DNA of 64,000 nt from Dehalococcoidia bacterium (GTDB lineage: Bacteria; Chloroflexota; Dehalococcoidia; Dehalococcoidales; Fen-1064): the NCBI GenBank assembly GCA_011171075.1, contig DUFD01000025.1:30281-94280 (forward strand). The letters run 5' to 3'. Position 1 is the first letter of the stretch; each line of letters opens with the position of its first letter. The notes under the pieces are model-generated. The model worked only from the letters and a program-made list of their open reading frames with translations, searched no databases and had not been told where the DNA came from. Below, piece by piece: positions 45,334 through 64,000 of this stretch. The translations under genes and the position numbers were made by a program.

Positions 45334-45873
45334 GTGCAGGCCTCCTTCTGGTGCTCTCCTGAGTCCTTAGTACTAGCTACCATTACCTGCCATTCGTTAT
45401 AACCATTGCTCACTACTTAACACAATTGTAGTATTGAGCGACAGGCCTCGATATCCCGCAAAGGTACTTCAAGTAGTAGTACTTTCGTGTTGATGTTTTA
45501 AAGAGCTACGTACGACGATTACTATATTCTTTCCCGGAATTACATTCACAGTTGTTATTAATCATGTAATATAAATGCTACTATCTTATACATGAATAAA
45601 TTATCATGATTATTCTATCCTGTCAAGAGGATTTTTTTAATAAATGGCATGAGCTGTCTACTCTCCAGACGCTCAAATACCTCTATAGGCTCAACTATAC
45701 TTATTAAATGTTAGAAAGGGGTTAAAGGAGTGGAGGAGTTTGATTAGAGATAAATGGGGTTAGTTGAGCAACAGCATACGGTTCTGGAATGCGGCGTGGA
45801 TTTGTTCCAGTTCACCAGGAGAGGGTGGAAGCTTTCCGGGTTGTGATTAGCCCGGAGATGCTAGCAGTGTGGA

Positions 45874-47265: not shown

Positions 47266-47597
47266 TTCAAGCTCCTTGCTTGGAGGATGTGTATCTCTTT
47301 ACCTTTTTACACTCGGCATATGCGCCGGGCTGCTGCACTATTTGCTAGCATTATAACAGCCATTACCTGTGTGCTCAATGATGGCTATTCCTCCTACAAC
47401 GAAAGCTGCTGCGCGTCATCAATTAGTAACTTGGCGGTGAGTAGACCGATTAATATCAATGTGTGGTACAATGGGGGCTGTATTCTCTGTGATATTCTGT
47501 CTTATGGATTATTATTATCCAGACGAATACAATGGAAATTGATTGTAGCTATAGCGAATTATGCATACCTACGATGTGGCGATGGGGGTAGGCTGCC

Positions 47598-49778
47598 ATG
47601 TCAAGGTTGATACTTGTTTCTAACCGACTACCTGTCAGTGTGGTTAAAGGTAGGAGAGGACTGCGTTTTGAGCGCAGTGTTGGCGGACTGGCCACGGGCT
47701 TGGGTCCGCTCAGTAAATCCTATAACAGTACCTGGATAGGATGGCCGGGTATTGACCTGGAGACGATGGGTAGTGAGGCGGATAATGCTGTCGCAAAGTT
47801 ACGCGCTGATGGATATTATCCCGTTTCCTTATCAGAGCAGGATATTGAAGGTTACTACCACCAATTCTCCAATGACACGATATGGCCTCTTTTTCACTAC
47901 TTCCCCATGTATGCAGTGCACGATGTAGATTCCTGGCGAGCTTACACGCGGGTCAACGAAGTTTTTGCTGACGCGGTTACTAAGGTTGCCAAAGACGGTG
48001 ATATCATCTGGATACACGATTACCACCTCATGTTGCTTCCGAGACTAGTCAGGAGGAAGCTGGAAAACGCAGCGATAGGTTTTTTCCTTCACATCCCTTT
48101 CCCATCTTTTGAGGTTTTTCGCCTGCTCCCCTGGCGGAACGAAATCCTGCAGGGAATCCTGGGAGCTGACCTTGTGGGCTTTCATACGTATGATTATGCA
48201 GGACATTTTCTTGATAGCGTACGCAATTTATTAGGCTATGATTCGACCATGGGGCAGATTACTGCTGACGACCGTGTGGTGAAGGTTGATATCTTCCCGA
48301 TGGGAATAGACTACCAGCGCTATTCTAGCGCTGCCCGGAATCGGCGGGTGAAGGCACAAGTACGGACGTTCCGCAAGACCGTGGGACGCCGTAAGGTTAT
48401 CCTGTCGATAGACCGTCTTGACTATACCAAGGGTATTCTCGAGCGTCTGGCGGCCTATGACCTTTTCCTGTCGAAGCACCCGGGACAGAGGGAGAAGCTG
48501 GTGCTTGTTCTGGTGGTAGTACCTTCTCGAACTGAGGTCGGGCATTATGCCCTGCTTAAACGGGAGATAGACGAGTTTGTTGGCGCAATCAACGGTAAGT
48601 ACGGTACCATTGGCTGGACGCCCATATGGTACCTGTACCGTTCCTTGCCTTTTTACTCCCTTGTAGCCATGTACAGTATGGCTGATATTGCGCTGGTTAC
48701 GCCTGTCAGAGATGGGATGAATCTGATAGCGAAGGAATATATAGCAGCTAGGTCGGATGGCAAGGGAGTCTTAATCCTCAGTGAGACTGCCGGAGCGGCT
48801 AGAGAGCTTGGGGAAGCTATCATAGTAAACGTTAACAATCAGGGAGAGATGGTACAAGCATTGGAAAGAGCCCTGGTAATGACGGAGGCGGAGCAGATAG
48901 AAAGCAACACGATGATGCAAAAACGCTTAATGCGCTATAACGTGAAGCGATGGGCAGATGAATTCATAGAAAGGTTGCTCCAGACCAAGAAATTCCAGGA
49001 AGAGATGGAAATGAGAGTACTGACTCCTGAGGCACAGAAGGAGCTGGTCAGTGATTATCTGAGGAGTGACCGAAGGTTGGTAATGCTTGACTACGATGGT
49101 ACGCTTGTACCCTTTTCTGGAAGGCCGGCAAAAGCAAAACCGAGCGACGAGGTTATAGCGTTGTTGCATGACCTCGCCGAGAACCCTAAAAATGAAGTGG
49201 TGCTTATTAGTGGACGTGAGAGAGAGACCATAGATGATTGGTTTCACGACTTAAATATTGGTCTGGTGGCTGAACATGGCGTGTGGATTAAAGACAAGCA
49301 CGGGGAATGGACACAATTAGCAGCACTGACAAATGACTGGAAGGATGAGGTCCGTCCCATTCTTGAGCTCTGTGTAGACAGGACGCCTGGTTCGTTGGTC
49401 GAGGAGAAAGAATTTTCCCTGGCCTGGCACTATCGGAGGTGCTGGCCTGCCCTCGGTGAAGTGCGGGCCAGAGAACTGGTGAACGACCTCTTACACCTCA
49501 CAACCAATCTCAACCTTCAGGTGCTGGAGGGTAGCAAAGTGGTTGAAATAAAGAATGCCGGTGTGAACAAGGGGCAGGCGGCCTCACGATGGGCATCTCA
49601 AGAAGAGTGGGACTTCATACTGGCACTGGGTGATGACCTGACTGACGAGGACGTTTTTCAGGCCCTCCCGGCACACACGTGGTCCATCAAGGTGGGTTTT
49701 GGGGCGTCTGGAGCCAGGTTTAATCTCGGCTTTCCGACCAATGTAAGGTCTTTGCTGAAGGAGATGAACGGGCTCTAG
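47598..49778 (+). CDS. otsA: Bifunctional trehalose-6-phosphate synthase/phosphatase (OtsA-OtsB fusion)
   Basis: GT20 N-terminal domain (LILVSNRLPV...GFFLHIPFPS...VTPVRDGMNL). C-terminal HAD domain (LVMLDYDGTLVP...LALGDDLTDED). Confidence 0.9.
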   Translation: MSRLILVSNRLPVSVVKGRRGLRFERSVGGLATGLGPLSKSYNSTWIGWPGIDLETMGSEADNAVAKLRADGYYPVSLSEQDIEGYYHQFSNDTIWPLFHYFPMYAVHDVDSWRAYTRVNEVFADAVTKVAKDGDIIWIHDYHLMLLPRLVRRKLENAAIGFFLHIPFPSFEVFRLLPWRNEILQGILGADLVGFHTYDYAGHFLDSVRNLLGYDSTMGQITADDRVVKVDIFPMGIDYQRYSSAARNRRVKAQVRTFRKTVGRRKVILSIDRLDYTKGILERLAAYDLFLSKHPGQREKLVLVLVVVPSRTEVGHYALLKREIDEFVGAINGKYGTIGWTPIWYLYRSLPFYSLVAMYSMADIALVTPVRDGMNLIAKEYIAARSDGKGVLILSETAGAARELGEAIIVNVNNQGEMVQALERALVMTEAEQIESNTMMQKRLMRYNVKRWADEFIERLLQTKKFQEEMEMRVLTPEAQKELVSDYLRSDRRLVMLDYDGTLVPFSGRPAKAKPSDEVIALLHDLAENPKNEVVLISGRERETIDDWFHDLNIGLVAEHGVWIKDKHGEWTQLAALTNDWKDEVRPILELCVDRTPGSLVEEKEFSLAWHYRRCWPALGEVRARELVNDLLHLTTNLNLQVLEGSKVVEIKNAGVNKGQAASRWASQEEWDFILALGDDLTDEDVFQALPAHTWSIKVGFGASGARFNLGFPTNVRSLLKEMNGL

Positions 49779-49835: not shown

Positions 49836-50681
49836 CTACTCTTGATTACGCTGCCTGTAGGCCTCAACATACCGCCTGGCAAACCTGTCACGACCAAGCA
49901 GAAGGTCAGCTGCCAGGATTACCGGACGGGATTTGGCCGCATCCGTTATCAGACAGGTCACGCCGGCGCCGATGGCCATGACTATGAAGGCATTATTCAA
50001 TGTGTCACGGTCAGGAAGGCCAAATGATACGTTGCTCGCTCCCAGTGCCTGGTTAACTCCCAGTTCTGACTTTACCCGGCTGATGGCCCGGATGACCTGC
50101 GGCCCGGCGCCCGTATCTGCCCCGATGGCAAAGGCGAGGCAATCGATAATAATATCTTCGCGGGGGATACCCAGCGCTCCGGCCTGTGTCACTATTCGGT
50201 GGGCTATCGATACCCGGCGTTCACTGTCCTTTGGAGGGCCTTCGTCGTCTTGCGCCAGGCCGATGACGGTCGCCCCGTATTCCTTAACTAACGGCAGTAT
50301 TTTCTCCAGCGATTCTCTCTCACCACTGACCGAGTTGATGAGCGGTTTGCCTTTGTAGACCTTTAAGGCTGCCTCCAGCGCCGCCGGATTGTCACTATCG
50401 AGACAGAGAGGTGCGTCGACTGTACCCATTAAGACCTGTACGGCTTCGGGGAGCAGGGTAGCTTCATCCACGCCGAAGGTGCTGACGTTAACGTCAATAA
50501 CATCCGCCCCGGCCTGTACCTGCGCCAGGGCCATGTTACGAACGACGTCCCAGTTGCCTTCCTTCAGTGCCTTGGCCAGCCTCTTGTTTCCCGAGGGATT
50601 GATACGCTCGCCGATGAGCACGGTCGGCCGGTCATCCCCGATAATGACTTCATTCGTGGTGCCTGTTACTCTGGTTTCCAT
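49836..50681 (-). CDS. Pterin-binding methyltransferase (methyl-corrinoid:tetrahydrofolate, AcsE/MeTr-like)
   Basis: LIGERINPSGNKRLAKAL...DVIDVNV...NSVSGE...SNVSFGLP matches the DHPS-like pterin-binding barrel of MeTr. Confidence 0.75.
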   Translation of the reverse strand: METRVTGTTNEVIIGDDRPTVLIGERINPSGNKRLAKALKEGNWDVVRNMALAQVQAGADVIDVNVSTFGVDEATLLPEAVQVLMGTVDAPLCLDSDNPAALEAALKVYKGKPLINSVSGERESLEKILPLVKEYGATVIGLAQDDEGPPKDSERRVSIAHRIVTQAGALGIPREDIIIDCLAFAIGADTGAGPQVIRAISRVKSELGVNQALGASNVSFGLPDRDTLNNAFIVMAIGAGVTCLITDAAKSRPVILAADLLLGRDRFARRYVEAYRQRNQE

Positions 50682-50698
50682 CGGTTAGTTTACCTTTA

Positions 50699-52039
50699 TT
50701 ATTTATATACGCCGTATTCCTTAGCGGCTTCCATCATGGCGCGCAGGTTATCCGGGGGTGCGCTGGTGACTGATGAGCCCGCTGATAGTATGTAGCCGCC
50801 ACCTGGGGCACAGATTTCAATCAGGTTGCGGCAGTATTCCTTGACCTCCTGGGCGGTGCCGGTAGATATCAGTGAGGCGGGCGCGTTTCCGGCAATGCAG
50901 CACTTGTCCCCGAGGACTTTTTTGGCGGTGGCCATATCCGTCTGGTCGAACCGCCAGGCGACCGCCCCCTTAGGGAACTCGTTGACCGTCTCCAGACGTG
51001 TCATGTAGCTCCCTTCGGCAAACAGTGAGGGTATAATGCCTTGGTCAACCAGGGCGAGACAGACTTTTCTCAGCGATGGCCAGTAGAAGGTCTCGAACTG
51101 CTTGGCCGACATGTAACCATCGGCACCTTTATGCAGCGGGAAGCCGATGGTGGTTCTCCTGAGGTCTTTCGCCCTTGAGAGCAACGAATCAATGGTCAGC
51201 TCCGTAATGACGTCAATGGCTTCAAGGAGCTTCTCCGGTTGACGGTACATGTCCATAATAATACCCCGGGTACCCCTCAGTGTGTCTCCGATGGTATCGA
51301 AGGGTGCCTTGGCCAGACCGGCCCCCCGGGGGGAGGGTATCCCCGCTTCCTGTGCCTCGCGGGTGCACTCCTCGACGACCGCCATCCATTTCGGGAACTC
51401 CTTACCGACGTCTATCAGTGCCTGGAGTGTTGCCTGGACATCAGGTCTCGCGAAGGGCATGAAGTAGGCGCTTGGTAGTTCGATAATGTCGGTGAAAGAC
51501 TGAAGGTGCCGGAAGGACTCGAATATGCCGAATATACGGGGCATATAGGTCCTCATCCAGAAATCAGATGGGTTCCTGATAAGGGCATCGTACTCGTCGG
51601 CCATCATATACTCGCCCTCAACAAACTGGTGCCCTTTGGCATCATCAGGAAGGCCGTGGCCCGGCCAGATGTAGAGTTTGTAGTCAATGAGGTCGTATAT
51701 CGTTCCCGGCATGACCGCGCCGGGGCCGGTATAGGTGTCCATCTCAAACTCATTGACGAACTTCTTCCACGCCCGGTGGAGCTTGTCGTAGTCATACATG
51801 ACCGTCTTAAGGTCGGTTCCAGCCCAGTACGCCGGTAAAACGCCGAAAGGCAGTTGCACCGGCACACGGTCGGGCTCTTTCATCAGATAGACGTCGGCCA
51901 GCCTCTGAAGCCTGCTGTAATAGGCTTTCTCAGCTTCCGGACTGGAAAAGTTGATGTCGGCCGGCTCAAGCGACCGTCTGAACCTTTCCTCTCTTTTTTC
52001 TTCAGGGGTCAGCTCTGCCCATTCTTTCGCTCTTTCCAT
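50699..52039 (-). CDS. URO-D-family methyltransferase (candidate substrate:corrinoid MT I), paralog A
   Basis: 446 aa. It is the tandem paralog of the next gene and lies in the corrinoid operon context. The family call is by resemblance to uroporphyrinogen-decarboxylase-like methyltransferases. Confidence 0.65.
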   Translation of the reverse strand: MERAKEWAELTPEEKREERFRRSLEPADINFSSPEAEKAYYSRLQRLADVYLMKEPDRVPVQLPFGVLPAYWAGTDLKTVMYDYDKLHRAWKKFVNEFEMDTYTGPGAVMPGTIYDLIDYKLYIWPGHGLPDDAKGHQFVEGEYMMADEYDALIRNPSDFWMRTYMPRIFGIFESFRHLQSFTDIIELPSAYFMPFARPDVQATLQALIDVGKEFPKWMAVVEECTREAQEAGIPSPRGAGLAKAPFDTIGDTLRGTRGIIMDMYRQPEKLLEAIDVITELTIDSLLSRAKDLRRTTIGFPLHKGADGYMSAKQFETFYWPSLRKVCLALVDQGIIPSLFAEGSYMTRLETVNEFPKGAVAWRFDQTDMATAKKVLGDKCCIAGNAPASLISTGTAQEVKEYCRNLIEICAPGGGYILSAGSSVTSAPPDNLRAMMEAAKEYGVYK

Positions 52040-52077
52040 GTTTCAATGCCTCTGTCCCGTTTTACCCTGGAAAATTA

Positions 52078-53409
52078 TTACCTGTATACGCCGTACTCCT
52101 TGGCGGCATCCATCACGGCACGCAGGTTCTCGGCGTTCGTCTCCGTGGCACTCGCCCCTCCGGTCAGTATATAGCCTCCACCCGGGGCGCAGATTTCAAT
52201 CAGTTTGCGACAGTACTCCTTAACGTCCTGCGCTGTTCCGGTGCACATCAGTGATGTGGGTATGTTACCCATAATGCAGGCGTTATCACCGATAACCTTC
52301 TTGGCGGTGGCCATATCTGTCTGGTCGAAGTGCCATATAGCCCAGCCCCTGGGCAGGTCCTTGATAACTTCAAGGCGTGTGAGGTATTTGCCCTCGGCGA
52401 ATAATGATACCATGATTCCCTCATTAATCAGGGCCATGATTACCTTCCTAAGTGTCGGCCAGTAGAAGGTCTCAAACTGCTTGGGAGACATGAAGGTATC
52501 GTCGCCTTTATGGAGGGCAAACCAGGCGGTGATACCACCGGAGGCATTCACTCCCTCAATCGCCCGTTCGATATTTATGTCTGCGATGAAGTCCATTGCC
52601 TCCAGAAGTTTTTCCGGCTGCCGGTACATGTCCATGATGATACCCTGTGTCCCTCGCAGGGCGTCTCCGATGGTATCGAAGGGCGCCGCCGCCGCACCAC
52701 ACTGTATGGACGGAAGCCCTATGGCAAGTGCCTCCCGGTCGCAGGCACTGACAGCCTCCCGCCATTTCGACATCTCTTTGCCGGCATCAATCAGTGCTTG
52801 GAATGTGGCCTGAACCTCCGGCCTCATGAAGGTCGGCACCATGTTCATCGGCCTCCCCAGCATGGATGAAAAGGGGGCAAACTTCTTGAGGGGCTCCAGT
52901 GCTCCCGCCAGTCGGGGCATAAGTACCCTGAAGGAGAAATCAGACGGGTCTTTCATCAGGGCGTCGTACTCGTCGGCCATCATGTACTCGCCTTCGACAA
53001 ACTGGTAACCCTTGACATCGGGGGCGAGTCCGTGCCCCGGCCATTTATATAGCTTGTAGTCGAGAAGTTCCAGCACTCTGGCAGCGTGGACGAGACCAGG
53101 ACCACGATACGTATCCATATCGAAGTCATGGATGAACTTGGTCCATGCCCTTCGAAGTTCGTCGTAATCATACATGACCTCCTGGAGCGTCGCACCGACG
53201 TAATAAGCCGGGAAGTTGCCCGATGGCAGCTGTACCGGCACCCTGTCCGGCTCTTCGCCACGGATGGCCTTGCCCAGCCTGGTTGCTCTTTCCTTGTAGG
53301 CTTTTTCGGCTTCAGGGCTGGCGAATTTCACTCCGGACGCTGATAACCACTTTTTAAACCTCTCCTCCCTTTTTTCTTCAGGGGTCAATTCTTCCCATTT
53401 TTTATCCAT
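52078..53409 (-). CDS. URO-D-family methyltransferase (candidate MT I), paralog B
   Basis: The start is moved to ATG 53409 (MDKKWEELTPEEKREERF), which aligns with the paralog A N-terminus. It overlaps the upstream stop by 8 nt. Confidence 0.65.
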   Translation of the reverse strand: MDKKWEELTPEEKREERFKKWLSASGVKFASPEAEKAYKERATRLGKAIRGEEPDRVPVQLPSGNFPAYYVGATLQEVMYDYDELRRAWTKFIHDFDMDTYRGPGLVHAARVLELLDYKLYKWPGHGLAPDVKGYQFVEGEYMMADEYDALMKDPSDFSFRVLMPRLAGALEPLKKFAPFSSMLGRPMNMVPTFMRPEVQATFQALIDAGKEMSKWREAVSACDREALAIGLPSIQCGAAAAPFDTIGDALRGTQGIIMDMYRQPEKLLEAMDFIADINIERAIEGVNASGGITAWFALHKGDDTFMSPKQFETFYWPTLRKVIMALINEGIMVSLFAEGKYLTRLEVIKDLPRGWAIWHFDQTDMATAKKVIGDNACIMGNIPTSLMCTGTAQDVKEYCRKLIEICAPGGGYILTGGASATETNAENLRAVMDAAKEYGVYR

Positions 53410-55258
53410 TTTCCAGCATCTCCCGCCTGTTATTCTTAATCCAGTACCTTCCCAGGTGGCCCGTTTCGATGAATATCTTTTTAAAATCCGGGTCGGTGGC
53501 CAGCTCGATATAGCGCGACCGGAACGTGGCTGCCTGCCCCTCTTCACGCTTCGCAAGAGAGATAAGGGCCAGCTTTGCCCCCATGCCGGCGGCGTTCCCC
53601 ACCTGGCGGAAACAATTCAAGGGTAGTGGCGGCAGAAGGCCGATAGTTACCGCGCTGGACAGGTCAAGATATGAGCCAAATGACCCGGCAATTACAACCT
53701 GCCCGAGCTGTTCCTCGGTGAAGCCATTCGTTTCAAGCAGGAGCTGGATGCCGGTACGAATGGCCGCCTTGGCCAGCTGTAATTCGCGTATATCTTTCTG
53801 GGTGAGGACGATTTCCGGATGCCCGTCCTGTTTTGTCTGGTCGACGAGGAGGAACTCGGCCTGGTTGCCCGTCATACGGACACGGGGGTGTTTATCAATC
53901 AGACGCCCGCCGTCATCGATAATTCCCGACAGATAAAGCTGGGCCACGGCATCGACGACTCCCGAGCCACAGATACCAAGCGGGGGTGCTTCATCAATGG
54001 TCTGGAAATCAATGACGTCCCCGGTTATTCGCAGTCTTTCAATTGCCCCTCTGGCAGCCCTCATACCATGTTTGATATGGCCGCCTTCAAAGGCAGGGCC
54101 TGAGGCACATGAAGTCGTGGTTATCCCTTGGCCGTTTACCAGGGAGATTTCGGTATTCGTGCCGATATCCAGGAATACAGTCAGTCCTTCGACCTGGTGG
54201 GTATTCGAAGCCAGCAACACGGCCGCGTGGTCGGAGCCGACGAAACCTGTTACCACAGGCGGAAGGTGGACGTATGCCCCCGGGGCTATCTTTATCCCCA
54301 GTTCACGTGCCTTAATATCGATAGCCATACCTGCCGCAGCCACAAAAGGAGTAAGCGCCAGCTGTTTTACCGGTAAACCGAGTAATAGATGGTGCATGGC
54401 CGTATTACCGACGACCACCATCTCGACAATCGCTTCAACATCGACACCAACCTCCGAACAGAGATTGGCGGCCAGTCCGTTCAATTTGTCCACGACCAGC
54501 TTTTGCAGTACTGCTCTTTTGTTCGGTCGCTTGACGACATAATTGATGCGGCTGATGATATCTTCCCCGTAGTCAATCTGGGGATTCATAGTCCCTTCGA
54601 CGGCCAGGGTCTGGCCGCTGCTCAAATCGACCAGATATCCAGCGATTGTGGTGGTGCCCAAATCTACGGCCAGTCCCAGCTGTTGACTGGGCCACGGGCT
54701 AACTGCTATTACTTCATCGTCACGTACCGCAGCCTGGCATTCCCAGTTCCAGTCACGTATCTGTGGCGAGAGGGAACGCAGCACGTTGATATCAATATGG
54801 CGACAGGGTAGCTGGTATTGCTCGTTCAGCGCTTCGAGCAGACGGTTGGTGTCAGCCTGCTGGTCGGATAACGATGGCGCCGTGAGCCGGATATGATAGG
54901 CTATGACAGCGGGTTCTGGAGGAACCGTCGCTTCCAGTCCCTCCACACAGATACGTTGCGAAGTGCTCATTGACTCCGGCGGGACTATTATCTGGCAATC
55001 GCTGCTCGGAATAGCCTGACAGGCGAGGCGCCAGCCGTCACCAAGCTCTTGGGCTGAAAGGGCTTCTAGTTCACTATCGGTGGGCTCGGATAGGGTACCG
55101 CTTATTACCTTCACGCGGCAGGTGTTGCATGTCCCACGCCCTCCGCATATACTGCTGATACCCACACCAAGTCGGTGTGCACAGTCCAGAAGCGACTCTT
55201 TCTCCCGGCACTCTCCTCTTTGTCCTAGGGGCTGAAAATCAATGGTGTATGATTTCAT
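53402..55258 (-). CDS. Corrinoid activation/regeneration protein (RACo-type: 2Fe-2S ferredoxin + ASKHA ATPase)
   Basis: N-terminal plant-type ferredoxin Cys pattern CGGRGTCNTCRV. A long ASKHA-like body follows (DLGTTTIAGY...DIGTNTEI...GSFGSYL). Confidence 0.8.
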   Translation of the reverse strand: MKSYTIDFQPLGQRGECREKESLLDCAHRLGVGISSICGGRGTCNTCRVKVISGTLSEPTDSELEALSAQELGDGWRLACQAIPSSDCQIIVPPESMSTSQRICVEGLEATVPPEPAVIAYHIRLTAPSLSDQQADTNRLLEALNEQYQLPCRHIDINVLRSLSPQIRDWNWECQAAVRDDEVIAVSPWPSQQLGLAVDLGTTTIAGYLVDLSSGQTLAVEGTMNPQIDYGEDIISRINYVVKRPNKRAVLQKLVVDKLNGLAANLCSEVGVDVEAIVEMVVVGNTAMHHLLLGLPVKQLALTPFVAAAGMAIDIKARELGIKIAPGAYVHLPPVVTGFVGSDHAAVLLASNTHQVEGLTVFLDIGTNTEISLVNGQGITTTSCASGPAFEGGHIKHGMRAARGAIERLRITGDVIDFQTIDEAPPLGICGSGVVDAVAQLYLSGIIDDGGRLIDKHPRVRMTGNQAEFLLVDQTKQDGHPEIVLTQKDIRELQLAKAAIRTGIQLLLETNGFTEEQLGQVVIAGSFGSYLDLSSAVTIGLLPPLPLNCFRQVGNAAGMGAKLALISLAKREEGQAATFRSRYIELATDPDFKKIFIETGHLGRYWIKNNRREMLENG

Positions 55259-55288
55259 ATCCTTCGAATTCTAGTTGAACCTGTCGGG

Positions 55289-55981
55289 TTATTTGGCTAC
55301 CAGCCTGTAATGACAGGTCTTACTGAGGTTGCAACGGGCACAGGCTTCGCCCTGTTTTCGGACGGTTACCTGCTCACCCAGGGCGATAACCATAGAGGCA
55401 GATTTGCGGGGAACCATTATTCCGGAAGGGGCCAATCTAACCCCTATTTCCTCCGACGGTACCAGTTGGAATAGCGGCCACTGCTCTGTAATCGGGAAGC
55501 CGGGTATGCCCGGACTGATGGGACTGCTTGACTGATAACCACGGAGTGACGCTTCATTCTGCATGAGCCTGCAGGTCTCCTGCACCAGCGAGTCCACAGC
55601 AGCACTTCCGATACCGTCGAGCAGCAGACCTCGTAAGGGCTCTCTACCACCGAGGTAATCTGTTACCTGTTTTTCCAGTTTGGGGCCAATTGTACAGACG
55701 GCTACGGTAAGTTCACGACCACCTGATATTAATGAAGAGAGCGACGCGCTTCGAATCTCCGTGCTATTGTCGAGTTGCACCGAATCATGGCCCACTTCGG
55801 ATATGGCGTAGACATCATAGGCGATAGCCGGTTCAAGGAGATGCTTGTCATAAGTGCTGGCCAGTAGCTCATCTATCAGGGCCATTATCTCAGGCTTGAC
55901 CGAGGATTGCTGCCTGATTCCCTCTCTGCGTAATACCTGCCTTTTATCAAGGCTGATGTGAATACCACTGACTATTGTCAC
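55289..55981 (-). CDS. Stand-alone MetH-activation-domain-like protein
   Basis: LLDGIGSAAVDSL...SPGIPGFPITEQ...PRKSASMVIALG and a C-terminal CARCNLSKTCHYR. The family call is from memory. Confidence 0.55.
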   Translation of the reverse strand: MTIVSGIHISLDKRQVLRREGIRQQSSVKPEIMALIDELLASTYDKHLLEPAIAYDVYAISEVGHDSVQLDNSTEIRSASLSSLISGGRELTVAVCTIGPKLEKQVTDYLGGREPLRGLLLDGIGSAAVDSLVQETCRLMQNEASLRGYQSSSPISPGIPGFPITEQWPLFQLVPSEEIGVRLAPSGIMVPRKSASMVIALGEQVTVRKQGEACARCNLSKTCHYRLVAK

Positions 55982-56034
55982 GTCTTTCTCTTCCTTAATG
56001 TGATTGCTCAGGTATGCTACTCATTCTAAGGGCT

Positions 56035-56658
56035 TTATATCCAGCCTTTGGCCAGTGAGACTGCTTTCATAGCATCCTGACCGTAGGCATCGGCACCCGC
56101 ATACTTCCGTATGTCCTCATCAATCTGGCCGCCGCCAATCATTATCTTCACCTTGTCTCGCAGTCCGGCCGCTTTTATTGCCTCCACTGTTTCCTTCATT
56201 GAGTCGAACGCCAGCGTTAAGAACCCGCTCAGCCCTACGATAGGTGCGTCGGTCTCCTTTATCTTATCAACGAATTTTTGAGGCGGCACATCCACACCGA
56301 GGTCGAACACTTCAAAACCGTTAACATCCAGCATGAATACCACGATGTCTTTGCCGATATCGTGTATGTCCCCGGCTACCGTACCAATAATACACTTGCC
56401 GGAGGTTTTTGCCTGCGCATCTTCTTTGAGCGCGGGTTTGATAATTTCGGTTATCTCTTTTAATATTTCGGCTGAATAAATAAGCTCGGGAAGAAAATAG
56501 GTACCATCGCTAAAGCGATTGCCTATTATCTCCATCCCGTTTCTACTCTCTTCAAGAATCGATTTTGGGTCTTCACCACTATCCAGTTTTTCCCTGGCAA
56601 GTCTGAGGGCCTCGTTTTCTTCCAAATCAGCAATCGCCTTGGTTAGCTCTCCACTCAT
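56035..56658 (-). CDS. Corrinoid (B12-binding) protein
   Basis: DxHxxG motif GDIHDIGKDIV, a Rossmann-like B12 domain, and an N-terminal helical cap. Confidence 0.85.
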   Translation of the reverse strand: MSGELTKAIADLEENEALRLAREKLDSGEDPKSILEESRNGMEIIGNRFSDGTYFLPELIYSAEILKEITEIIKPALKEDAQAKTSGKCIIGTVAGDIHDIGKDIVVFMLDVNGFEVFDLGVDVPPQKFVDKIKETDAPIVGLSGFLTLAFDSMKETVEAIKAAGLRDKVKIMIGGGQIDEDIRKYAGADAYGQDAMKAVSLAKGWI

Positions 56659-57080: not shown

Positions 57081-57156
57081 GGCGCATTCGTCTAGCGGTT
57101 AGGACACCTCCCTCTCAAGGAGGAGATCACCGGTTCGAATCCGGTATGCGCTACCA
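57081..57156 (+). tRNA. tRNA-Glu(CUC), CCA encoded
   Basis: Hand-folded cloverleaf. Acceptor GGCGCAT/ATGCGCT, anticodon stem CCTCC/GGAGG with loop CTCTCAA, T-loop GGTTCGAATCC. Confidence 0.85.
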
Positions 57157-57159
57157 TAC

Positions 57160-57189
57160 TTGACTTTTAACGGGGTGCGTTTCTATAAT
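57160..57189 (+). promoter_or_regulatory. Candidate sigma70 promoter P2 between tRNA-Glu and tRNA-Thr
   Basis: TTGACT, an 18-nt spacer, then TATAAT. Confidence 0.5.
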
Positions 57190-57230
57190 ACGCAAGTTCG
57201 AGATAGGGAAATCAGAGTATTACGAATGAT

Positions 57231-57304
57231 GCCTGAGTAGCTCAGTTGGTTAGAGCAGCTGTCTTGTAAACAGCAGGTCGAGGGTTCGAATCCCCCCTCA
57301 GGCT
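57231..57304 (+). tRNA. tRNA-Thr(UGU)
   Basis: Acceptor GCCTGAG/CTCAGGC. Anticodon stem GCTGT/ACAGC with loop CTTGTAA. There is one A-C mismatch in the T stem. Confidence 0.8.
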
Positions 57305-57330
57305 GGTAATAATGGTGGGTAGGAATATTC

Positions 57331-57417
57331 GGAGGGGTGCCGGAGTGGTTAATCGGAGCAGACTGTAAATCTGTCGCCCTAAGGGCTACGCAGGTTCGAA
57401 TCCTGCCCCCTCCACCA
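57331..57417 (+). tRNA. tRNA-Tyr(GUA), long variable arm, CCA encoded
   Basis: Acceptor GGAGGGG/CCCCTCC, anticodon loop CTGTAAA, variable arm CGCCCTAAGGGC. Confidence 0.85.
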
Positions 57418-57418
57418 C

Positions 57419-57447
57419 TTGGACTAAGAGTAATAATTCTGTATAAT
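57419..57447 (+). promoter_or_regulatory. Candidate sigma70 promoter P3 upstream of tRNA-Thr(GGU)-tuf
   Basis: TTGGAC, a 17-nt spacer, then TATAAT. Confidence 0.5.
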
Positions 57448-57460
57448 AAATAGAACCGGC

Positions 57461-57533
57461 GCCCACATAGCTCAGTCGGCAGAGCACGTTCTTGGTAAGA
57501 ACGGGGTCACCAGTTCGAATCTGGTTGTGGGCT
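57461..57533 (+). tRNA. tRNA-Thr(GGU)
   Basis: Acceptor GCCCACA/TGTGGGC. Anticodon stem CGTTC/GAACG with loop TTGGTAA. T arm ACCAG-TTCGAAT-CTGGT. Confidence 0.85.
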
Positions 57534-57555: not shown

Positions 57556-58764
57556 ATGGCTAAGAAAAAGTTTGAGAGAACTAAGCCGCATTGCAACGTA
57601 GGTACGATAGGCCACGTCGACCACGGGAAGACAACACTTACCTCAGCAATAACACTGGTGCTGTCCAAGCAGGCCGGTGCTGCTACCGGCTTCCGGAGCT
57701 TTGATAGCATTGACAATGCTCCGGAGGAGAAGGCCCGTGGACTGACGATTGCCATCGCTCACATTGAGTATGAGACAGCAAAGCGGCACTATGCTCATAT
57801 CGACTGTCCTGGCCATGCCGACTTCATTAAGAATATGATTACCGGAGCCGCCCAGATGGATGGAGCGATTCTGGTGGTAAGTGCACCGGACGGCCCGATG
57901 CCCCAGACCCGGGAGCATATCCTGCTGGCGCGCCAGGTGGAGGTCCCCAGCATGGTCGTCGCCCTCAACAAGGTGGATATGATGGATGATGAGGAACTAC
58001 TCGAGCTGGTAGAGATGGAGCTCAGGGAGTTACTTTCCAAGTATAATTTCCCCGGCGACGAGATACCAATAGTGAGAGTGAGTGCCCTCAAGGCGCTTGA
58101 GTGTGGTTGCGGTAATCCAGAGTGTGAATGGTGTGGCCCTATTCTAAAGCTAATGGATGAAGTCGATGACTACATTCCAACGCCGGTTAGACCCAAAGAC
58201 CAGCCCTTCCTGATGTCAGTAGAGGATGTGTTCAGCATCAAAGGTCGCGGTACCGTACCCACGGGGAGAGTCGAGAGAGGTACCATCAAAGTAGGCCAGG
58301 AGGTCGAGATAGTCGGCCTGCACCATGAACCGCGTAAGACAGTGGTAACCGGCCTAGAGATGTTCCACAAGCTGCTTGACGAAGCTGAACCGGGTGATGC
58401 CATCGGTGCTCTGCTTAGAGGAGTAGAGCGTGCTGATATTGAGCGGGGACAGGTCCTGGCGGCGCCTGGTACTATTAAACCACACACCTATGCTGAGGGG
58501 CAGGTGTATGTGCTGAGCAAGGAAGAAGGAGGAAGGCATACCCCATTCTTTAATGGGTACCGACCTCAGTTCTACATAAGGACCACGGATATCACCGGCG
58601 CTATTGAGCTGCCAGAGGGTGTGGAGATGGTAATGCCCGGTGATAATATCACCATGAAGATAAAACTAATCTACCCGGTGGCTCTGGAGACGGGATTGCG
58701 ATTTGCGATTCGTGAGGGAGGTCGAACGGTAGGGGCTGGTACCTTTACCAAGATACTAGAATAA
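57556..58764 (+). CDS. tuf: Elongation factor Tu
   Basis: [18 protein letters not shown] and NKVD GTPase motifs, full length at 402 aa. Confidence 0.97.
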
Positions 58765-59835: not shown

Positions 59836-60264
59836 GTGGCAAAGAAGGTAATAGCTGTAATTAAACTGCAAATTGAAGCGGGTAAGGCAAACCCGGCACC
59901 GCCGGTTGGTTCGGCTCTGGGTCAGCACGGTATTAACATAATGGGTTTCTGCAAGGAGTACAATGACCGTACTTCCTCCCAGGCTGGGTCTATTATTCCC
60001 GCAGAGATAACTGTCTATGAGGACAGGTCGTTTACATTTCTTACCAAGACACCACCGACGGCAGACCTGCTGAAGAAGGCTATTGGAGTAGAGAAAGGGT
60101 CTGGTGCTACCGGACGCGAGCAACTGAATAAGCTGTCACGTGAGAAGCTCAAAGAGATAGCTGAGCAAAAGGCCAAGGACCTGAACGCCACCACTATCGA
60201 GGCTGCCGAACGGATTGTGGCTGGGACGGCGCGAAGTATGGGAATTGAGATAGAGCAAGAATGA
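59836..60264 (+). CDS. rplK: 50S ribosomal protein L11
   Basis: GTG start. The [35 protein letters not shown] signature is present. Confidence 0.95.
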
Positions 60265-60974
60265 CGAAGCATGGAAAGAGATACAGGGAAGCATATCAAC
60301 AGATTGATAGGGCTAAGTCTTATACGCCTGAAGAGGCTGTAGACCTTGCCAAGCGGACAGCATCCGTAAAATTTGATGAAACCGTCGAGCTGCATCTTAG
60401 GATGGGGCTCGACCCGCGTAATGCCAGCCAGCAGGTTCGCGGCGTTGCCCTGTTGCCGCATGGCCTTGGTAAGCCGGTTCGTGTTCTCGTTTTCGCCCAG
60501 GGCGAGGCTGCCAGGAATGCTGAGAACGCCGGTGCTGACTATGTCGGTGCTGACGAACTGGCCAAGAAGATTGAGGAAGGCTGGCTGGAGTTTGATACCG
60601 CGATTGCTACCCCGGAGATGATGAGCAAGGTGGGAAAGCTTGGCCGCGTTCTGGGAAGAAAAGGGCTGATGCCAAATCCGAAGGCGGGTACGGTTGTTAC
60701 GGCGGAAGAGCTACCCAGGGTAATTGAGGATGCCCGTAAGGGCAGGGTGGAGTTCAAACTGGACAGAACAGCTATCATCCACCTGCCTCTGGGTAAGGCC
60801 AGCTTTGATAGTGAAAAACTTATGGGGAACCTGTCGGCGATAATTGAGGCAATAGTCAAAGCAAAGCCAAGTGGCGCCAAAGGCCAATATATTAGATCTG
60901 CCTTCATCACCACGACCATGGGGCCCAGTATTAAGCTTGACCTTCGGCCAACCCTGGCGCTGGCGGCTGCTTGA
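60261..60974 (+). CDS. rplA: 50S ribosomal protein L1
   Basis: ATGA overlap with rplK. Typical L1 sequence ([17 protein letters not shown]...). Confidence 0.95.
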
Positions 60975-61062
60975 TATATAGAATATTGGATAGTAAAATA
61001 TTTCTGCTGATTAGCAGGTGTGTGTTATTTCCCGGATGGTGAGTACTGAATAAGGAGGAAAC

Positions 61063-62490
61063 ATGGCAGGTATCAAATCATATGGAGCATACATTCCGTA
61101 TTACAGAATGCCCCGAAGCGTGATTGGCGCAGCTTGGGGGCGTGGTGGCGGGCGTGGCGAGTTAGCTATAGCCGGGTATGACGAAGATTCTGTTAGTATG
61201 TCAGTGTCGGCTGGTATCGACTGTCTGAAAGGTACTGATCCGCATACGGTTGATGCTATCTACCTGGCAACTACTACCCCTCCATATATCGAGCGATTGA
61301 ATTCAAACATAGTCTCCAATGCCCTTGATTTTCGCCGTGATGTGCGGAATGCCGATTTCGGTAACGGTCTCAGGGCAGGAGTCAGTGCTCTCATGGCGGC
61401 TGTTGATGCCGTAAACGCGGGTTCTCTTAAGAGTGTCCTTGTAACCGCGTCTGACCTGCGCATGGGAGTCCCTGGTGGTGAACACGAAAATACTCTGGGC
61501 GATGGCGCTGCCGCTTTCCTTGTGGCAGACGATGCCGTAGCCGTTGAGGTTGAAGGCAGTCTTACCTATTCGGACGATTTAGCTGATTACTGGAGAATGA
61601 CTGGCGACGAGTTCATTCGCTCCTGGGAAGACCGCTTTGGTCGTGATGCCGGTTATAGCCAGATACCCGTTGAAGTGGTCAAAAACCTCCTGGGGAAACT
61701 GAACCTTACACCCAAGGACATTAGCAAGGCATGTGTGGCCGGTGCCAACACACGTGCACAGACTGGCCTGGCCAGGGCAATGGGTTTTGCTCCCGAACAG
61801 GTACAGGATGCACAACTTGATGATGTAGGTAATACCGGAGTGGCACAGCCCCTGATGATACTGATTGCAGCACTGGAAGATGCCAAGCCGGGTGAGAGGT
61901 TCCTGATGGTCTCCTGGGGTACCGGCTGTGATGCCGTTGTACTGAAAACCACCGACCAGATTGAGAAAATCAAGGATAGAAGGGCTATCAAGCGCCATCT
62001 GGCTATCAAGGCAACCCTCGATAACTATGGAAAGTATATGCGCTGGCGTGACGTCGTACCAACTCAGATACGGGCTCGCGGTGGTATATCCATGTCGGCA
62101 GAGTGGAGAGAGCGTAAACTTGGCCTGGCCCTTTACGGTGTGAAATGCCTGAATTGTGGTACCGTTCAGCTTTATATGAGGGGCTCTTCGATGCGTGCCC
62201 ATATCTGTGTTGAATGTCAGGCAAAGGACAACTTTGAGCCCTATCGGTTCTCTGATAAAACAGGTAAGGTTGTTACCTTCAGTCACGATTTTCTGGGTGG
62301 TGGTATTAATCCACCGATGACACGGGCTGTGGTTGACTTCGAAGGAGGTGGTAGAGGCCTGTTCGACCTGGTGGACCGTGATCCGGAAGAGTGCAAAGTG
62401 GGTATGGATGTCGAGATGACCTTCAGGATGACAAGAACCGCCGAGAATGCCAAGAGCTACTTCTGGAAAATTAAACCGGTTAGGGAGTAG
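61063..62490 (+). CDS. HMG-CoA-synthase-like thiolase-fold domain fused to C-terminal DUF35 (zinc ribbon + OB fold)
   Basis: N-terminal GIKSYGAYIPYYRMPR...GYDEDSVSM matches archaeal-type HMGCS. The C-terminal CLNC...CVEC ribbon plus OB-fold pattern matches DUF35. A strong AAGGAGG Shine-Dalgarno precedes the start. Confidence 0.75.
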   Translation: MAGIKSYGAYIPYYRMPRSVIGAAWGRGGGRGELAIAGYDEDSVSMSVSAGIDCLKGTDPHTVDAIYLATTTPPYIERLNSNIVSNALDFRRDVRNADFGNGLRAGVSALMAAVDAVNAGSLKSVLVTASDLRMGVPGGEHENTLGDGAAAFLVADDAVAVEVEGSLTYSDDLADYWRMTGDEFIRSWEDRFGRDAGYSQIPVEVVKNLLGKLNLTPKDISKACVAGANTRAQTGLARAMGFAPEQVQDAQLDDVGNTGVAQPLMILIAALEDAKPGERFLMVSWGTGCDAVVLKTTDQIEKIKDRRAIKRHLAIKATLDNYGKYMRWRDVVPTQIRARGGISMSAEWRERKLGLALYGVKCLNCGTVQLYMRGSSMRAHICVECQAKDNFEPYRFSDKTGKVVTFSHDFLGGGINPPMTRAVVDFEGGGRGLFDLVDRDPEECKVGMDVEMTFRMTRTAENAKSYFWKIKPVRE

Positions 62491-62534
62491 AATATAATTA
62501 AGTAGCAGAATAGATAATCAGGGAGGTAATGAAG

Positions 62535-63758
62535 ATGGCAGGAAGTATTAAGGATAGGGTGGCTGTGGCTGGTATGGGGTGCTCCAGGTTCGGGGAACGC
62601 TGGGATGCCAGTGTCGATGACCTGATTGTGGAGGCTGCCTATGAGGCTTTCGAGGATGCCGGCGTGGGACCAGAGGATATCCAGGCTGCCTGGGTAGGTA
62701 CCGCAACGGGTGGTACTGGTATGACAATATCCGAACCTCTACGGCTCCAGTACATCCCTATTACCAGGGTCGAAAATGCCTGTGCCACCGCTTCGGACGC
62801 ATTCCGCAATGCCTGCTATGCTGTCGCGGCCGGTATCTATGACATCGTGCTGGCTATTGGTTGCGACAAATACAAGGACAGTGGTCTCAGCGGCCTGACC
62901 GACGGCTCGATACCTGGTCCCGGTCATGGTCTGATGGCGGCTGCAGCTGGTCCGCCACCGGCGTCGTTCGCCATGCTGGCCACCACTTATTTTGACCACT
63001 ATGGCCTCAGCTATGAGGAAGGAAAGCATATGATAGGCCGGGTCTCATGGAAGAGTCATGAGAACGGTCGGCGACACAAGAAGGCGCACTTCCAGAGGGA
63101 AGTCACCATGGACGCAATCCTCAATGCGCCGATTGTTTCTTGGCCCTTGGGACTGTACGATTGCTGTGGCGTCAGCGATGGTGCGGCGGCAGCAATAATC
63201 ACGACACCGGAGATAGCCAAGAACATGCGCAAAGGCAAAGAGCCCCCCATGTTCGTCAAGGCTCTGCAGATTGCCATGGCACCTAATGATGGTAACTTTA
63301 ACACCAAGTTCGACTACATGCATGTTGAAGCTACCGTGAGGGCGGGCGATGCAGCCTACAAGGAAGCCGGCATAACCAATCCGCGCGAGCAGATAAGCAT
63401 GGCCGAGGTTCATGACTGTTTCTCAATCACCGAGGCAGTCACCATGGAAGACCTCAGGTTCAGCGAGCGGGGAAAGGTCCAGAAGGACATTGAGGACGGC
63501 TTCTTTGACCTGGACGGCGGACTGCCGGTGCAGCCGGATGGAGGCCTGAAGTGTTTCGGTCATCCGATTGGTGCTAGCGGAATACGGATGCTTTATGAGA
63601 TGTATAACCAGCTTCAGGGCAGGGCTGACCGGATGTTGAATCCAGGTCTGCCTTCCCGGCAGATAAAAGACCCCAAGCTGGGACTTACCCATAACCTCGG
63701 TGGTGGTCCGGCTGGTTGTGCCATTTTCGTGGGTATCGTTGGTCTTGAAGGGGTATAG
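62535..63758 (+). CDS. SCP-x/archaeal-type thiolase (acetyl-CoA C-acyltransferase family)
   Basis: Active-site region VENACATASDAF and C-terminal GHPIGASGIRM. The start is at the second ATG (62535), 8 nt after GGAGG. Confidence 0.8.
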   Translation: MAGSIKDRVAVAGMGCSRFGERWDASVDDLIVEAAYEAFEDAGVGPEDIQAAWVGTATGGTGMTISEPLRLQYIPITRVENACATASDAFRNACYAVAAGIYDIVLAIGCDKYKDSGLSGLTDGSIPGPGHGLMAAAAGPPPASFAMLATTYFDHYGLSYEEGKHMIGRVSWKSHENGRRHKKAHFQREVTMDAILNAPIVSWPLGLYDCCGVSDGAAAAIITTPEIAKNMRKGKEPPMFVKALQIAMAPNDGNFNTKFDYMHVEATVRAGDAAYKEAGITNPREQISMAEVHDCFSITEAVTMEDLRFSERGKVQKDIEDGFFDLDGGLPVQPDGGLKCFGHPIGASGIRMLYEMYNQLQGRADRMLNPGLPSRQIKDPKLGLTHNLGGGPAGCAIFVGIVGLEGV

Positions 63759-63789
63759 TAAGCTGCCCCTCATGTTGTTTTGCTAATGC

Positions 63790-63827
63790 GAGGGTTGGTG
63801 GTAGGCTCAGGCTGAGCACCAGCCCTC
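63790..63827 (+). terminator. Stem-loop downstream of the thiolase gene (possible terminator, no U-tract)
   Basis: GAGGGTTGGTG pairs with CACCAGCCCTC (11 bp including one G-U), and an inner GCTCA/TGAGC helix is present. No T-run follows. Confidence 0.3.
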
Positions 63828-64000
63828 ACCGGGCATAACTGAATAATTTAACAAATAATGTCCTGAGACAGCGGGTGCCGGTTACGGCTTAATGTTTGCC
63901 TGCCGAGGAAACAGAGCGAGGTAGTAGCTAACCTGAAGGGTGGCGACTGCTTTAGCGTGTAAGATGATAAGTCCTCGTGCAGCAAGCATGAGGACTTAAT

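Follow-up and report, generated by a model that had tools for sequence, protein, structure and literature searches.

A fused HMG-CoA synthase-like/DUF35 protein lacking the catalytic Glu-Cys-His residues, paired with an intact thiolase in a Dehalococcoidia ribosomal-protein cluster

Near the right end of a 64,000-nucleotide stretch from a Dehalococcoidia bacterium (GenBank assembly GCA_011171075.1, contig DUFD01000025.1, positions 30,281 to 94,280 of the forward strand; hereafter the window, in whose numbering all coordinates are given) lie two adjacent genes that raise the question of what a synthase stripped of its catalytic residues does beside a thiolase that has kept its own. The first encodes a protein in which a domain resembling hydroxymethylglutaryl-CoA (HMG-CoA) synthase (HMGCS) is fused to a DUF35 domain, and the second a thiolase; a preliminary description of the locus, aligned by eye, had placed the two open reading frames (ORFs) correctly at 61063-62490 and 62529-63758 of the plus strand, and had proposed that the fusion protein is either a dead scaffold or the catalyst of a different reaction. 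We consider it likely that the pair represents the non-catalytic scaffold and the thiolase subunits of a degradative 3-ketoacyl-CoA thiolase complex of the bacterial ACAT/HMGS-DUF35 type. Since a dead HMGS-DUF35 fusion with a live thiolase was published, with biochemistry, in January 2026 (PMC12960953), the dead-scaffold idea is no longer new; our query is a member of this known class in a new phylum, and extends it.

The catalytic tetrad, defined in PMC12960953 as E82/C114/H238/N270 of the archaeal synthase 6esq_I, was mapped onto the fusion protein using HMMER alignments to 6esq_I and to Staphylococcus aureus MvaS (1tvz), together with MAFFT alignments. The four residues align with T71, L103, A226 and N257, respectively, and E79 and C111 of MvaS fall on the same T71 and L103. 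The three motifs registered by eye, LATTTPPY for the Glu, DFGNGLRAGVSAL for the nucleophile and KACVAGAN for the His, were all correctly placed, and the alignment with characterised synthases disclosed no mis-registered triad. The fourth residue of the tetrad, the Asn, had not been considered in the preliminary description and is retained. As to the statement that no Cys occurs between residues ~60 and 230, the cysteines of the fusion protein are found at positions 54, 224, 289, 362, 365, 382, 385 and 444, so that residues 55-223 are indeed free of Cys, while C224 falls inside the claimed range, within KACVAGAN, where it is aligned with no catalytic residue. Because there is no Cys between 55 and 223, mis-registration cannot yield a nucleophile in that interval.

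The same replacements run through the family, which was sampled in several ways: (i) a word-indexed protein search, from which the best 120 of 3633 relatives (62-92% identity) were taken as close homologues, nearly all being ~478-amino-acid fusions from Dehalococcoidia and Chloroflexota that their sources often name "HMG-CoA synthase", (ii) an exhaustive search of representatives (50% identity clusters), which returned 3278 clusters at E <= 1e-3 and 569 at E <= 1e-30 and whose best 150 are nearly all full-length fusions, and (iii) a locus scan of one genome per species with a 26-sequence alignment, from which the best 80 of 431 relatives were taken. The Glu position is occupied by Thr in 119 of the 120 close homologues and in 125 of the 150 representatives. 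At the Cys position, Leu is invariant among the close homologues (120/120) and the canonical Cys occurs in none of the 150 representatives. Not a single canonical Cys or Glu turned up in these two sets, nor in 82 genome-locus copies and 120 members of a second subfamily that brought the total to ~470 relatives. The His position is Tyr in most close homologues and Ala in the clade of the query; a His aligned with H238 was seen in 3 sequences only (one close homologue and two representatives), and in none of the genome-locus copies or second-subfamily members. The Asn is present in 109 of the 120 close homologues and in only 55 of the 150 representatives. With Leu in all 120 close homologues and Thr in all but one, neither chance nor a sequencing artefact accounts for the lost triad.

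Position 102 (61366-61368), immediately before the old nucleophile position, deserves separate mention. It is Gly in the query, Ser in its nearest relatives and in 120/150 representatives, and Cys in 108/120 close homologues (FANCLRAGT); active HMGCS and PhlA carry Ala there. Elbows of the thiolase fold generally have a small residue ahead of the nucleophile. A hidden nucleophile at this position was considered and rejected, since a residue that is Gly in the query and Ser in its nearest relatives is no conserved nucleophile. The Cys of the close homologues could nonetheless produce false "Cys conserved" calls in automated alignments.

The partner gene encodes a thiolase of the SCP2 type, and its nucleophile (VENACATAS), already pointed out by eye, is kept. 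The ATG at 62535 is the more probable start, because it lies 8 nt past a GGGAGG Shine-Dalgarno sequence, a better spacing, and gives the 407-amino-acid length seen in a 91%-identical relative; residue numbers nevertheless count here from 62529, and H295, for instance, becomes H293 with the later start. Pfam recognised Thiolase_N and Thiolase_C_1 (PF22691, 1.6e-31), and the protein passes NCBIfam PRK06157 with 560 bits against a cut-off of 403. Its best match in the Protein Data Bank (PDB) is the archaeal acetoacetyl-CoA thiolase 6esq_A (phmmer, 1.4e-55), with which Cys85, His295 and His345 align at C85, H284 and H336; further matches are the SCP2-thiolases 6hsj and 3zbg, and BbsB (7pxp_C, 1.2e-37). 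In SCP2-type thiolases, the HDCF loop stands in for the acid/base cysteine of the CxG motif. Among full-length partner thiolases, Cys85, the His, Asp and Phe of HDCF and the His and Pro of GHP are present in 64/64, and the Cys of HDCF in 63/64.

The two genes are almost always found together. With counts corrected by a tblastn re-check, the thiolase gene directly adjoins the fusion gene, in the same orientation, in 66 of the 74 assessable loci, lying downstream of it in 63 and upstream in 3. Four loci (L014, L050, L054 and L074, two of them from Blastocatellia metagenome-assembled genomes (MAGs)) differ from the other 70 in that no thiolase gene was present in the fetched flanks. The genes neighbouring the family members were clustered and cluster representatives checked against Pfam; as raw counts, without a background rate, the neighbours comprise acyl-CoA dehydrogenase (14 loci), enoyl-CoA hydratase (12), short-chain dehydrogenase/reductase (SDR; 11), family III CoA transferase (10), AMP-forming acyl-CoA ligase (9), ADP-forming acyl-CoA synthetase-like proteins (7), 3-hydroxyacyl-CoA dehydrogenase (6), a MaoC hydratase pair (5) and HpaB/AbfD-like proteins (4). 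When only the 58 loci of 9 kb or more are considered, a neighbour of acyl-CoA metabolism is present in 40, and two or more kinds are present in 21. The neighbourhoods are thus typically made up of beta-oxidation genes, and no polyketide synthase (PKS) or non-ribosomal peptide synthetase (NRPS) genes occur in the 25 most frequent neighbour families.

These neighbours bear on the direction of the reaction. The same assembly could be run biosynthetically, the thiolase condensing an acyl-CoA with acetyl-CoA while a reductase and a dehydratase bound to the DUF35/HMGS-like scaffold drive it forward, as in reverse beta-oxidation or the synthesis of a storage polymer or lipid. A precedent exists in Sulfolobus acidocaldarius, where a ketoacyl-CoA reductase and a MaoC dehydratase associate with a thiolase/DUF35 pair that operates synthetically (bioRxiv 10.1101/2024.07.05.601840); SDR and MaoC-pair genes stand beside several family members (L033, L055 and L056), a 3-hydroxyacyl-CoA dehydrogenase gene lies close to the pair in the 91% relative, and the location of the query in a ribosomal-protein cluster would fit a housekeeping anabolic role. 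We regard this explanation as unlikely, however, because the commonest neighbours, namely acyl-CoA dehydrogenases, CoA ligases and CoA transferases, are typical of degradation, no enoyl-CoA reductase was noticed in the top neighbour clusters, and the sole homologous architecture that has been tested gave thiolysis only: the Pseudomonas fluorescens complex makes neither HMG-CoA nor acetoacetyl-CoA from acetyl-CoA, and cleaves acetoacetyl-CoA (PMC12960953).

Despite the loss of its catalytic residues, the HMGCS-like domain is no decaying relic. Against the 91% relative (locus L001), the ratio of nonsynonymous to synonymous substitution rates (dN/dS) amounts to 0.088 in the HMGCS-like domain, 0.025 in DUF35 and 0.038 in the thiolase, compared with 0.049 and 0.035 in the flanking genes rplA and tuf, so that the domain is under strong purifying selection. 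Twenty-two of its 33 family-conserved positions (at least 85%) are identical in the active archaeal HMGCS, including P12, R15, D40-E41-D42, D98, D131, E142, R178 and G256, whereas E77, R133 and D147 are conserved in a family-specific manner. As read from these alignments, the framework has been retained while the catalytic residues were specifically replaced.

Such selection might also be expected if the domain were not dead and had acquired a new catalytic or ligand-handling role through Asn257, through E77/R133/D147 or through the small residue 102. The retention of Asn257, the Ser or Cys that most members carry one residue before the old nucleophile position, and the family-specific positions could be read in this way, but the explanation appears quite improbable to us: residue 102 is variable, with nothing more than a usual small residue in HMGCS and PhlA as well, the Leu, Thr and Tyr/Ala replacements are not residues of a catalytic type, two thirds of the conserved positions are simply inherited from HMGCS, and no catalysis maps to the homologous A subunit in either PhlACB or MucABC. 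Of the two options that the preliminary description had left side by side, the dead scaffold is therefore the better supported, by the family-wide Thr/Leu/Ala-Tyr replacements, by the inherited framework residues and by the P. fluorescens biochemistry, and the different reaction less so.

The domain structure of the fusion protein is clear. Pfam detected ACP_syn_III_C, a C-terminal domain of the FabH/HMGCS type, followed by OB_ChsH2_C/DUF35 (PF01796, 36 bits against a cut-off of 27.1); each of the four zinc-ribbon cysteines is at least 90% conserved in a 146-sequence alignment, and the N-terminal MxGI is kept among homologues. No identical entry was returned by an exact-sequence look-up; the relatives used for context were P0003 (91% identical) and P0074 (67% identical). 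In phmmer searches of all PDB chains, the top matches were PhlA (9skh_A and 5m3k_A, E about 1e-34), followed by 6esq_I (1e-30), the synthase of the archaeal thiolase/HMGCS/DUF35 complex, MucA (9vbo_A, 4e-16) and the bacterial MvaS 1tvz_A of S. aureus (3e-10). Residues 347-474 matched the archaeal DUF35 chain 6esq_E (1.7e-6), so that 6esq_I and 6esq_E are matched by consecutive segments of one ORF. An AlphaFold2 model built with 146 homologues was confident (pLDDT 93.9, pTM 0.94), with beta strands from 391 to 472 in the DUF35 region, and its best fold matches in Foldseek were PhlA, 6esq_I (TM 0.91, root-mean-square deviation 1.6 A) and MucA. The likeness to the archaeal complex noted at the outset is therefore real for the synthase, DUF35 and thiolase modules alike.

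That PhlA is the best match of the domain in both sequence and fold, and that G146, G259 and R/K133 are common to the domain, PhlA and MucA, might suggest a CoA-independent Friedel-Crafts C-acyltransferase acting on a small-molecule acceptor, as PhlACB and MucABC do. There is very little chance of this, given that the thiolase keeps the HDCF motif, the loss of which defines PhlC and MucB, that it matches the archaeal thiolase (1.4e-55) far better than PhlC (3e-21), and that PKS and NRPS genes are absent from the 40 annotated ORFs of the window as well as from the 25 most frequent neighbour families. Finally, a genuine HMG-CoA synthase with its triad displaced in the sequence, as the database names from JGI and NCBI and a partial match of the first ~330 residues to NCBIfam HMG-CoA synthase models would have it, can be set aside almost entirely, as every score is under its curated cut-off (PRK04262, 215.5 against 244; TIGR00748, 165 against 353; TIGR01835, 46 against 360), independent alignments to two solved synthases agree on the lost residues in a protein Cys-free from 55 to 223, substitution of the four tetrad residues (or H284A in the thiolase) abolishes HMG-CoA formation by the archaeal complex (PMC12960953), and no close homologue with demonstrated HMG-CoA synthase activity was found.

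We thus favour a degradative thiolase complex, which would operate as follows. The SCP2-type thiolase would perform all of the chemistry, with Cys85 as nucleophile and the HDCF and GHP motifs. The fusion protein, presumably derived from an archaeal HMG-CoA synthase and its DUF35 partner joined into one chain, would be unable to make HMG-CoA after the loss of Glu-Cys-His and would have been kept as an obligatory structural subunit. By homology with the solved structures, the two proteins may form a hetero-oligomer like 6ESQ and PhlACB, which are A4B4C4 dodecamers, with the fusion taking the place of both the A and the DUF35 subunits. On the model of the archaeal, PhlACB and MucABC complexes, the fusion would keep the thiolase folded, soluble and competent, and its pseudo-synthase domain probably supplies half of a shared CoA-binding chamber. 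As no live synthase is there to pull the unfavourable condensation, the complex is most likely thiolytic; we infer that it cleaves acetoacetyl-CoA or another short 3-ketoacyl-CoA, in the last step of a pathway of the beta-oxidation type.

Several points weigh against this reading. The biochemistry of the architecture comes from P. fluorescens, outside the Dehalococcoidia, and the likeness of the query to that complex rests on described features rather than on a sequence alignment. None of the 40 annotated ORFs of the window is a further beta-oxidation gene, so that the context argument relies on paralogues and orthologues elsewhere, and the neighbour counts stand without a formal background. 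Moreover, the failure of the P. fluorescens complex to make acetoacetyl-CoA in vitro is thermodynamically expected when no coupling enzyme is present, and is still compatible with biosynthesis in vivo. The retained Asn257 and the family-specific E77, R133 and D147 could point to a residual ligand-binding role.

In taxonomic terms, the family belongs to anaerobic degraders (Dehalococcoidia, Syntrophaceae, Syntrophorhabdus, Desulfatiglandales, Ca. Methanolliviera and Syntropharchaeia). The best 80 loci stem chiefly from Dehalococcoidia and Chloroflexota MAGs, with others from Syntrophaceae, Syntrophorhabdus, Desulfatiglandales, Syntrophomonas, Dethiobacter, Nitrospirales, Nitrospinae and Blastocatellia, and several MAGs carry more than one copy of the fusion. 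Two members of the second subfamily, P0332 and P0364, are full-length fusions from the alkane-oxidising archaea Ca. Methanolliviera and Syntropharchaeia; both are devoid of the Glu, Cys and His, and both carry the name "hydroxymethylglutaryl-CoA synthase". The dead fusion thus extends beyond bacteria, and in archaea it could be mistaken for a real mevalonate-pathway enzyme.

Because the family is large, is under purifying selection, is almost constantly paired with an intact thiolase and has beta-oxidation neighbours, the inactive synthase domain appears to be a working and necessary part of a degradative thiolase that is widespread. A broader proposal, which we advance tentatively and would not call probable, is that the fused dead-HMGS/DUF35 protein and its thiolase constitute a main beta-oxidation thiolase architecture, maintained by selection, in strict anaerobes (Dehalococcoidia, Syntrophia, Desulfatiglandales and alkane-oxidising archaea), with paralogues presumably serving different acyl-CoAs, the dead domain acting as a CoA half-site that may dock partner enzymes, and one Dehalococcoidia lineage having fixed a copy between rplA and rplJ; if so, the expression of that copy would be tied to the ribosomal-protein cluster. 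The family is also a clear case from nature of a pseudoenzyme that has been kept as a scaffold. In practical terms, JGI and NCBI label many of its proteins "hydroxymethylglutaryl-CoA synthase", a name that is probably wrong, and metabolic reconstructions for Dehalococcoidia and other uncultured anaerobes could infer from it a mevalonate step that these proteins cannot catalyse.

The features of the locus are compiled in Table 1. The preliminary description had placed the pair where rplJ-rplL-rpoBC normally follow rplKA; it does lie directly after rplKA, but rplJ has not been replaced, since the L10 leader follows the pair and since rplJ-rplL follow the thiolase in the 91% relative, where the order is tuf-rpmG-secE-nusG-rplK-rplA-fusion-thiolase-rplJ-rplL. 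The pair is thus inserted between the rplKA and rplJL units. At the same site between rplA and the L10 leader or rplJ (60975-63843 in the window), a thiolase module is found in five divergent Dehalococcoidia/Chloroflexota loci, in which the fusion is 91% (L001), 73% (L006, with two tandem pairs), 48% (L013, with an additional acyl-CoA dehydrogenase), 45% (L029, where a different thiolase accompanies the fusion) and 44% (L036) identical to that of the query. The module is either an old insertion or marks a recurrent insertion site; in other relatives the pair is placed elsewhere. A putative promoter at 60971-60999 and hairpins were detected near the pair, in promoter and terminator scans that were overall not enriched over shuffled sequences.

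Table 1. Features of the fusion-thiolase locus, in window coordinates
Feature	Position	Strand	Basis
rplK and rplA, directly upstream of the pair (context only)	59836..60974	+	ORFs; same order, with Pfam L11 and L1, in L001
Shine-Dalgarno sequence AAGGAGG, strong, 4 nt 5' of the fusion-gene ATG	61052..61058	+	read from sequence
Fusion gene, 475 amino acids: HMG-CoA-synthase-like thiolase-fold domain, linker, DUF35 domain	61063..62490	+	ORF listing, Pfam, NCBIfam
HMGCS-like domain, residues 1-335, predicted non-catalytic	61063..62067	+	phmmer (PhlA, 6e-35), Foldseek
Thr71 codon, at catalytic Glu position (E82 of 6esq_I, E79 of MvaS)	61273..61275	+	alignments
Leu103 codon, at nucleophilic Cys position (C114 of 6esq_I, C111 of MvaS)	61369..61371	+	alignments
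Ala226 codon, at catalytic His position (H238 of 6esq_I)	61738..61740	+	alignments
Asn257 codon, sole tetrad residue kept (N270 of 6esq_I)	61831..61833	+	alignments
DUF35 domain, residues 347-475: zinc ribbon, then OB fold	62101..62487	+	Pfam PF01796, phmmer
Zinc-ribbon cysteines C362, C365, C382, C385 (CxxC...CxxC)	62146..62217	+	cysteine positions and alignment
SCP2-type thiolase, 409 amino acids from 62529; more probably 407 from ATG 62535	62529..63758	+	ORF, Pfam, NCBIfam, phmmer
Nucleophile Cys85 (VENACATAS; C85 of 6esq_A)	62781..62783	+	alignment
HDCF motif, His295-Phe298 (H295 aligns with H284 of 6esq_A)	63411..63422	+	alignment
GHP motif, Gly344-Pro346 (H345 aligns with H336 of 6esq_A)	63558..63566	+	alignment
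Terminator-like hairpin overlapping the thiolase stop codon	63749..63770	+	pattern scan only
Ribosomal protein L10 leader, cut by the window end	63844..64000	+	Rfam RF00557, 49.3 bits against a gathering score of 44

In the remainder of the window, no mevalonate or methylerythritol phosphate pathway genes occur among the 40 annotated ORFs. Positions ~1-37000 are taken up by a large surface-glycan biosynthesis cluster with many GT1/GT2/GT4 glycosyltransferases, a flippase, DegT-type aminotransferases, NeuB, a CMP-sugar cytidylyltransferase, a radical SAM/SPASM protein, several S-adenosylmethionine-dependent methyltransferases and an asparagine-synthase homologue; G+C content falls to 0.43-0.45 at 20-26 kb, against ~0.52 elsewhere in the window, and an ORF at 36092-37234 (380 amino acids) has no Pfam match. 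This cluster is followed by an Opp-type ABC transporter, trehalose genes, a corrinoid methyltransferase/RACo cluster, tRNAs, tuf, secE, nusG, rplK and rplA. Three clustered trehalose-synthesis genes (44035-49778) encode TreT-like glycosyltransferases (44035-45333 and 45874-47265) and an OtsA-OtsB fusion (Glyco_transf_20 and Trehalose_PPase; 47598-49778). On the minus strand, the corrinoid-dependent methyltransferase cluster (49836-56658) comprises a pterin-binding methyltransferase (49836-50681), long URO-D/MtaA-like methyltransferases (50699-52039 and 52078-53556), a RACo-type reductive activator with a 2Fe-2S domain (53402-55258), an ORF of 230 amino acids without a Pfam match (55289-55981) and a B12-binding corrinoid protein (56035-56658), and resembles a methyl-group or O-demethylation system. 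Directly upstream of tuf lie four tRNA genes (Glu-CTC, Thr-TGT, Tyr-GTA and Thr-GGT; 57081-57533, plus strand), with sigma-70-like promoter matches inside the tRNA cluster at 57160-57189 (11/12) and 57420-57447 (10/12). The EF-Tu itself (57556-58764, plus strand) contains a four-cysteine segment, with the same motif, CGCGKRECEWCG, in tuf of locus L036; the segment, which could be a zinc-binding insertion, occupies the place of ALEGDAEWEAK in E. coli EF-Tu.

Compared with known systems, the query has homologues of all three modules of the archaeal 6ESQ complex, and the catalytic Cys and both His residues of the archaeal thiolase are conserved in its partner. The archaeal DUF35 is, however, a separate chain, and the synthase of that complex is a working enzyme, channelling acetoacetyl-CoA into the mevalonate pathway; with three of the four tetrad residues gone, no such channelling to HMG-CoA would be possible in the query. 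In PhlACB (PpATase, 5M3K/5MG5) and MucABC (SmaATase, 9VBO/9VBT), as proposed here, an HMGCS-like subunit without the Glu and Cys is non-catalytic but required, and the DUF35 subunit bridges it to the catalytic subunit of the thiolase fold. PhlA carries Gly115 in place of the Cys and Cys83 in place of the Glu, and catalysis in PhlACB relies on PhlC residues only, although all three subunits are required (PMC6392133). Similarly, MucABC needs its non-catalytic A subunit and its DUF35 subunit, the thiolase-like subunit alone being catalytic; the E-C-H-N tetrad is missing from both MucA and PhlA, as is HDxF from MucB and PhlC (PMC12960953, Nat Commun, 30 January 2026). Both differ from the query in that their DUF35 is a separate protein, in the residues found at the Glu and Cys positions (Cys, and Gly or Glu, in PhlA and MucA; Thr and Leu in the query), in the transfer by PhlC and MucB of acetyl to phenolic or tetramic-acid acceptors, and in their location in PKS/NRPS clusters, where the query pair is flanked by rplKA and the L10 leader. 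Dependence of an SCP2-type thiolase-fold subunit on a DUF35 partner is also known from the BbsAB benzoylsuccinyl-CoA thiolase, Ltp2-ChsH2(DUF35), the Sal steroid aldolases and the S. acidocaldarius fatty-acid-synthase complex, all in beta-oxidation-like pathways, as we propose for the query; these systems are without an HMGCS-like domain and act on aromatic or steroid acyl-CoAs, and the thiolase residues of Ltp2 and Sal have been repurposed for retro-aldol chemistry.

The closest counterpart is the bacterial "minimal" class, marked by the absence of PKS and NRPS genes, to which 1001 of 1030 bacterial HMGS-ACAT-DUF35 loci belong (PMC12960953). Its P. fluorescens representative has a fused HMGS-DUF35 without the tetrad and an ACAT that keeps its Cys, HDxF and GHx, and the substitution H294Y in PfACAT abolishes acetoacetyl-CoA cleavage (PMC12960953); the corresponding histidine is H295 here (H293 from the start at 62535). 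Judged by its alignments, and with the P. fluorescens proteins compared by published description, our pair has every sequence-level feature of this class: HMGS-like and DUF35 domains on one chain, loss of the Glu, Cys and His of the tetrad, an adjacent thiolase with Cys, HDxF and GHx, and loci free of PKS and NRPS neighbours. When a Pseudomonadota family member served as the seed of a second search, the matches came from Thermodesulfobacteriota, Syntrophia and archaea, with no Pseudomonas homologue among them. The query differs from the P. fluorescens complex in its phylum, in having retained the tetrad Asn and in sitting inside a ribosomal-protein cluster. Whereas the authors of that study view their complex as an evolutionary intermediate without a defined role (PMC12960953), the query belongs to a large family under purifying selection and set among beta-oxidation genes; on this genomic basis of family size, selection pattern and neighbourhoods, we argue for a functional enzyme of primary metabolism rather than an evolutionary intermediate, and the family gives a testable route to the physiological role left open by the 2026 paper (PMC12960953).

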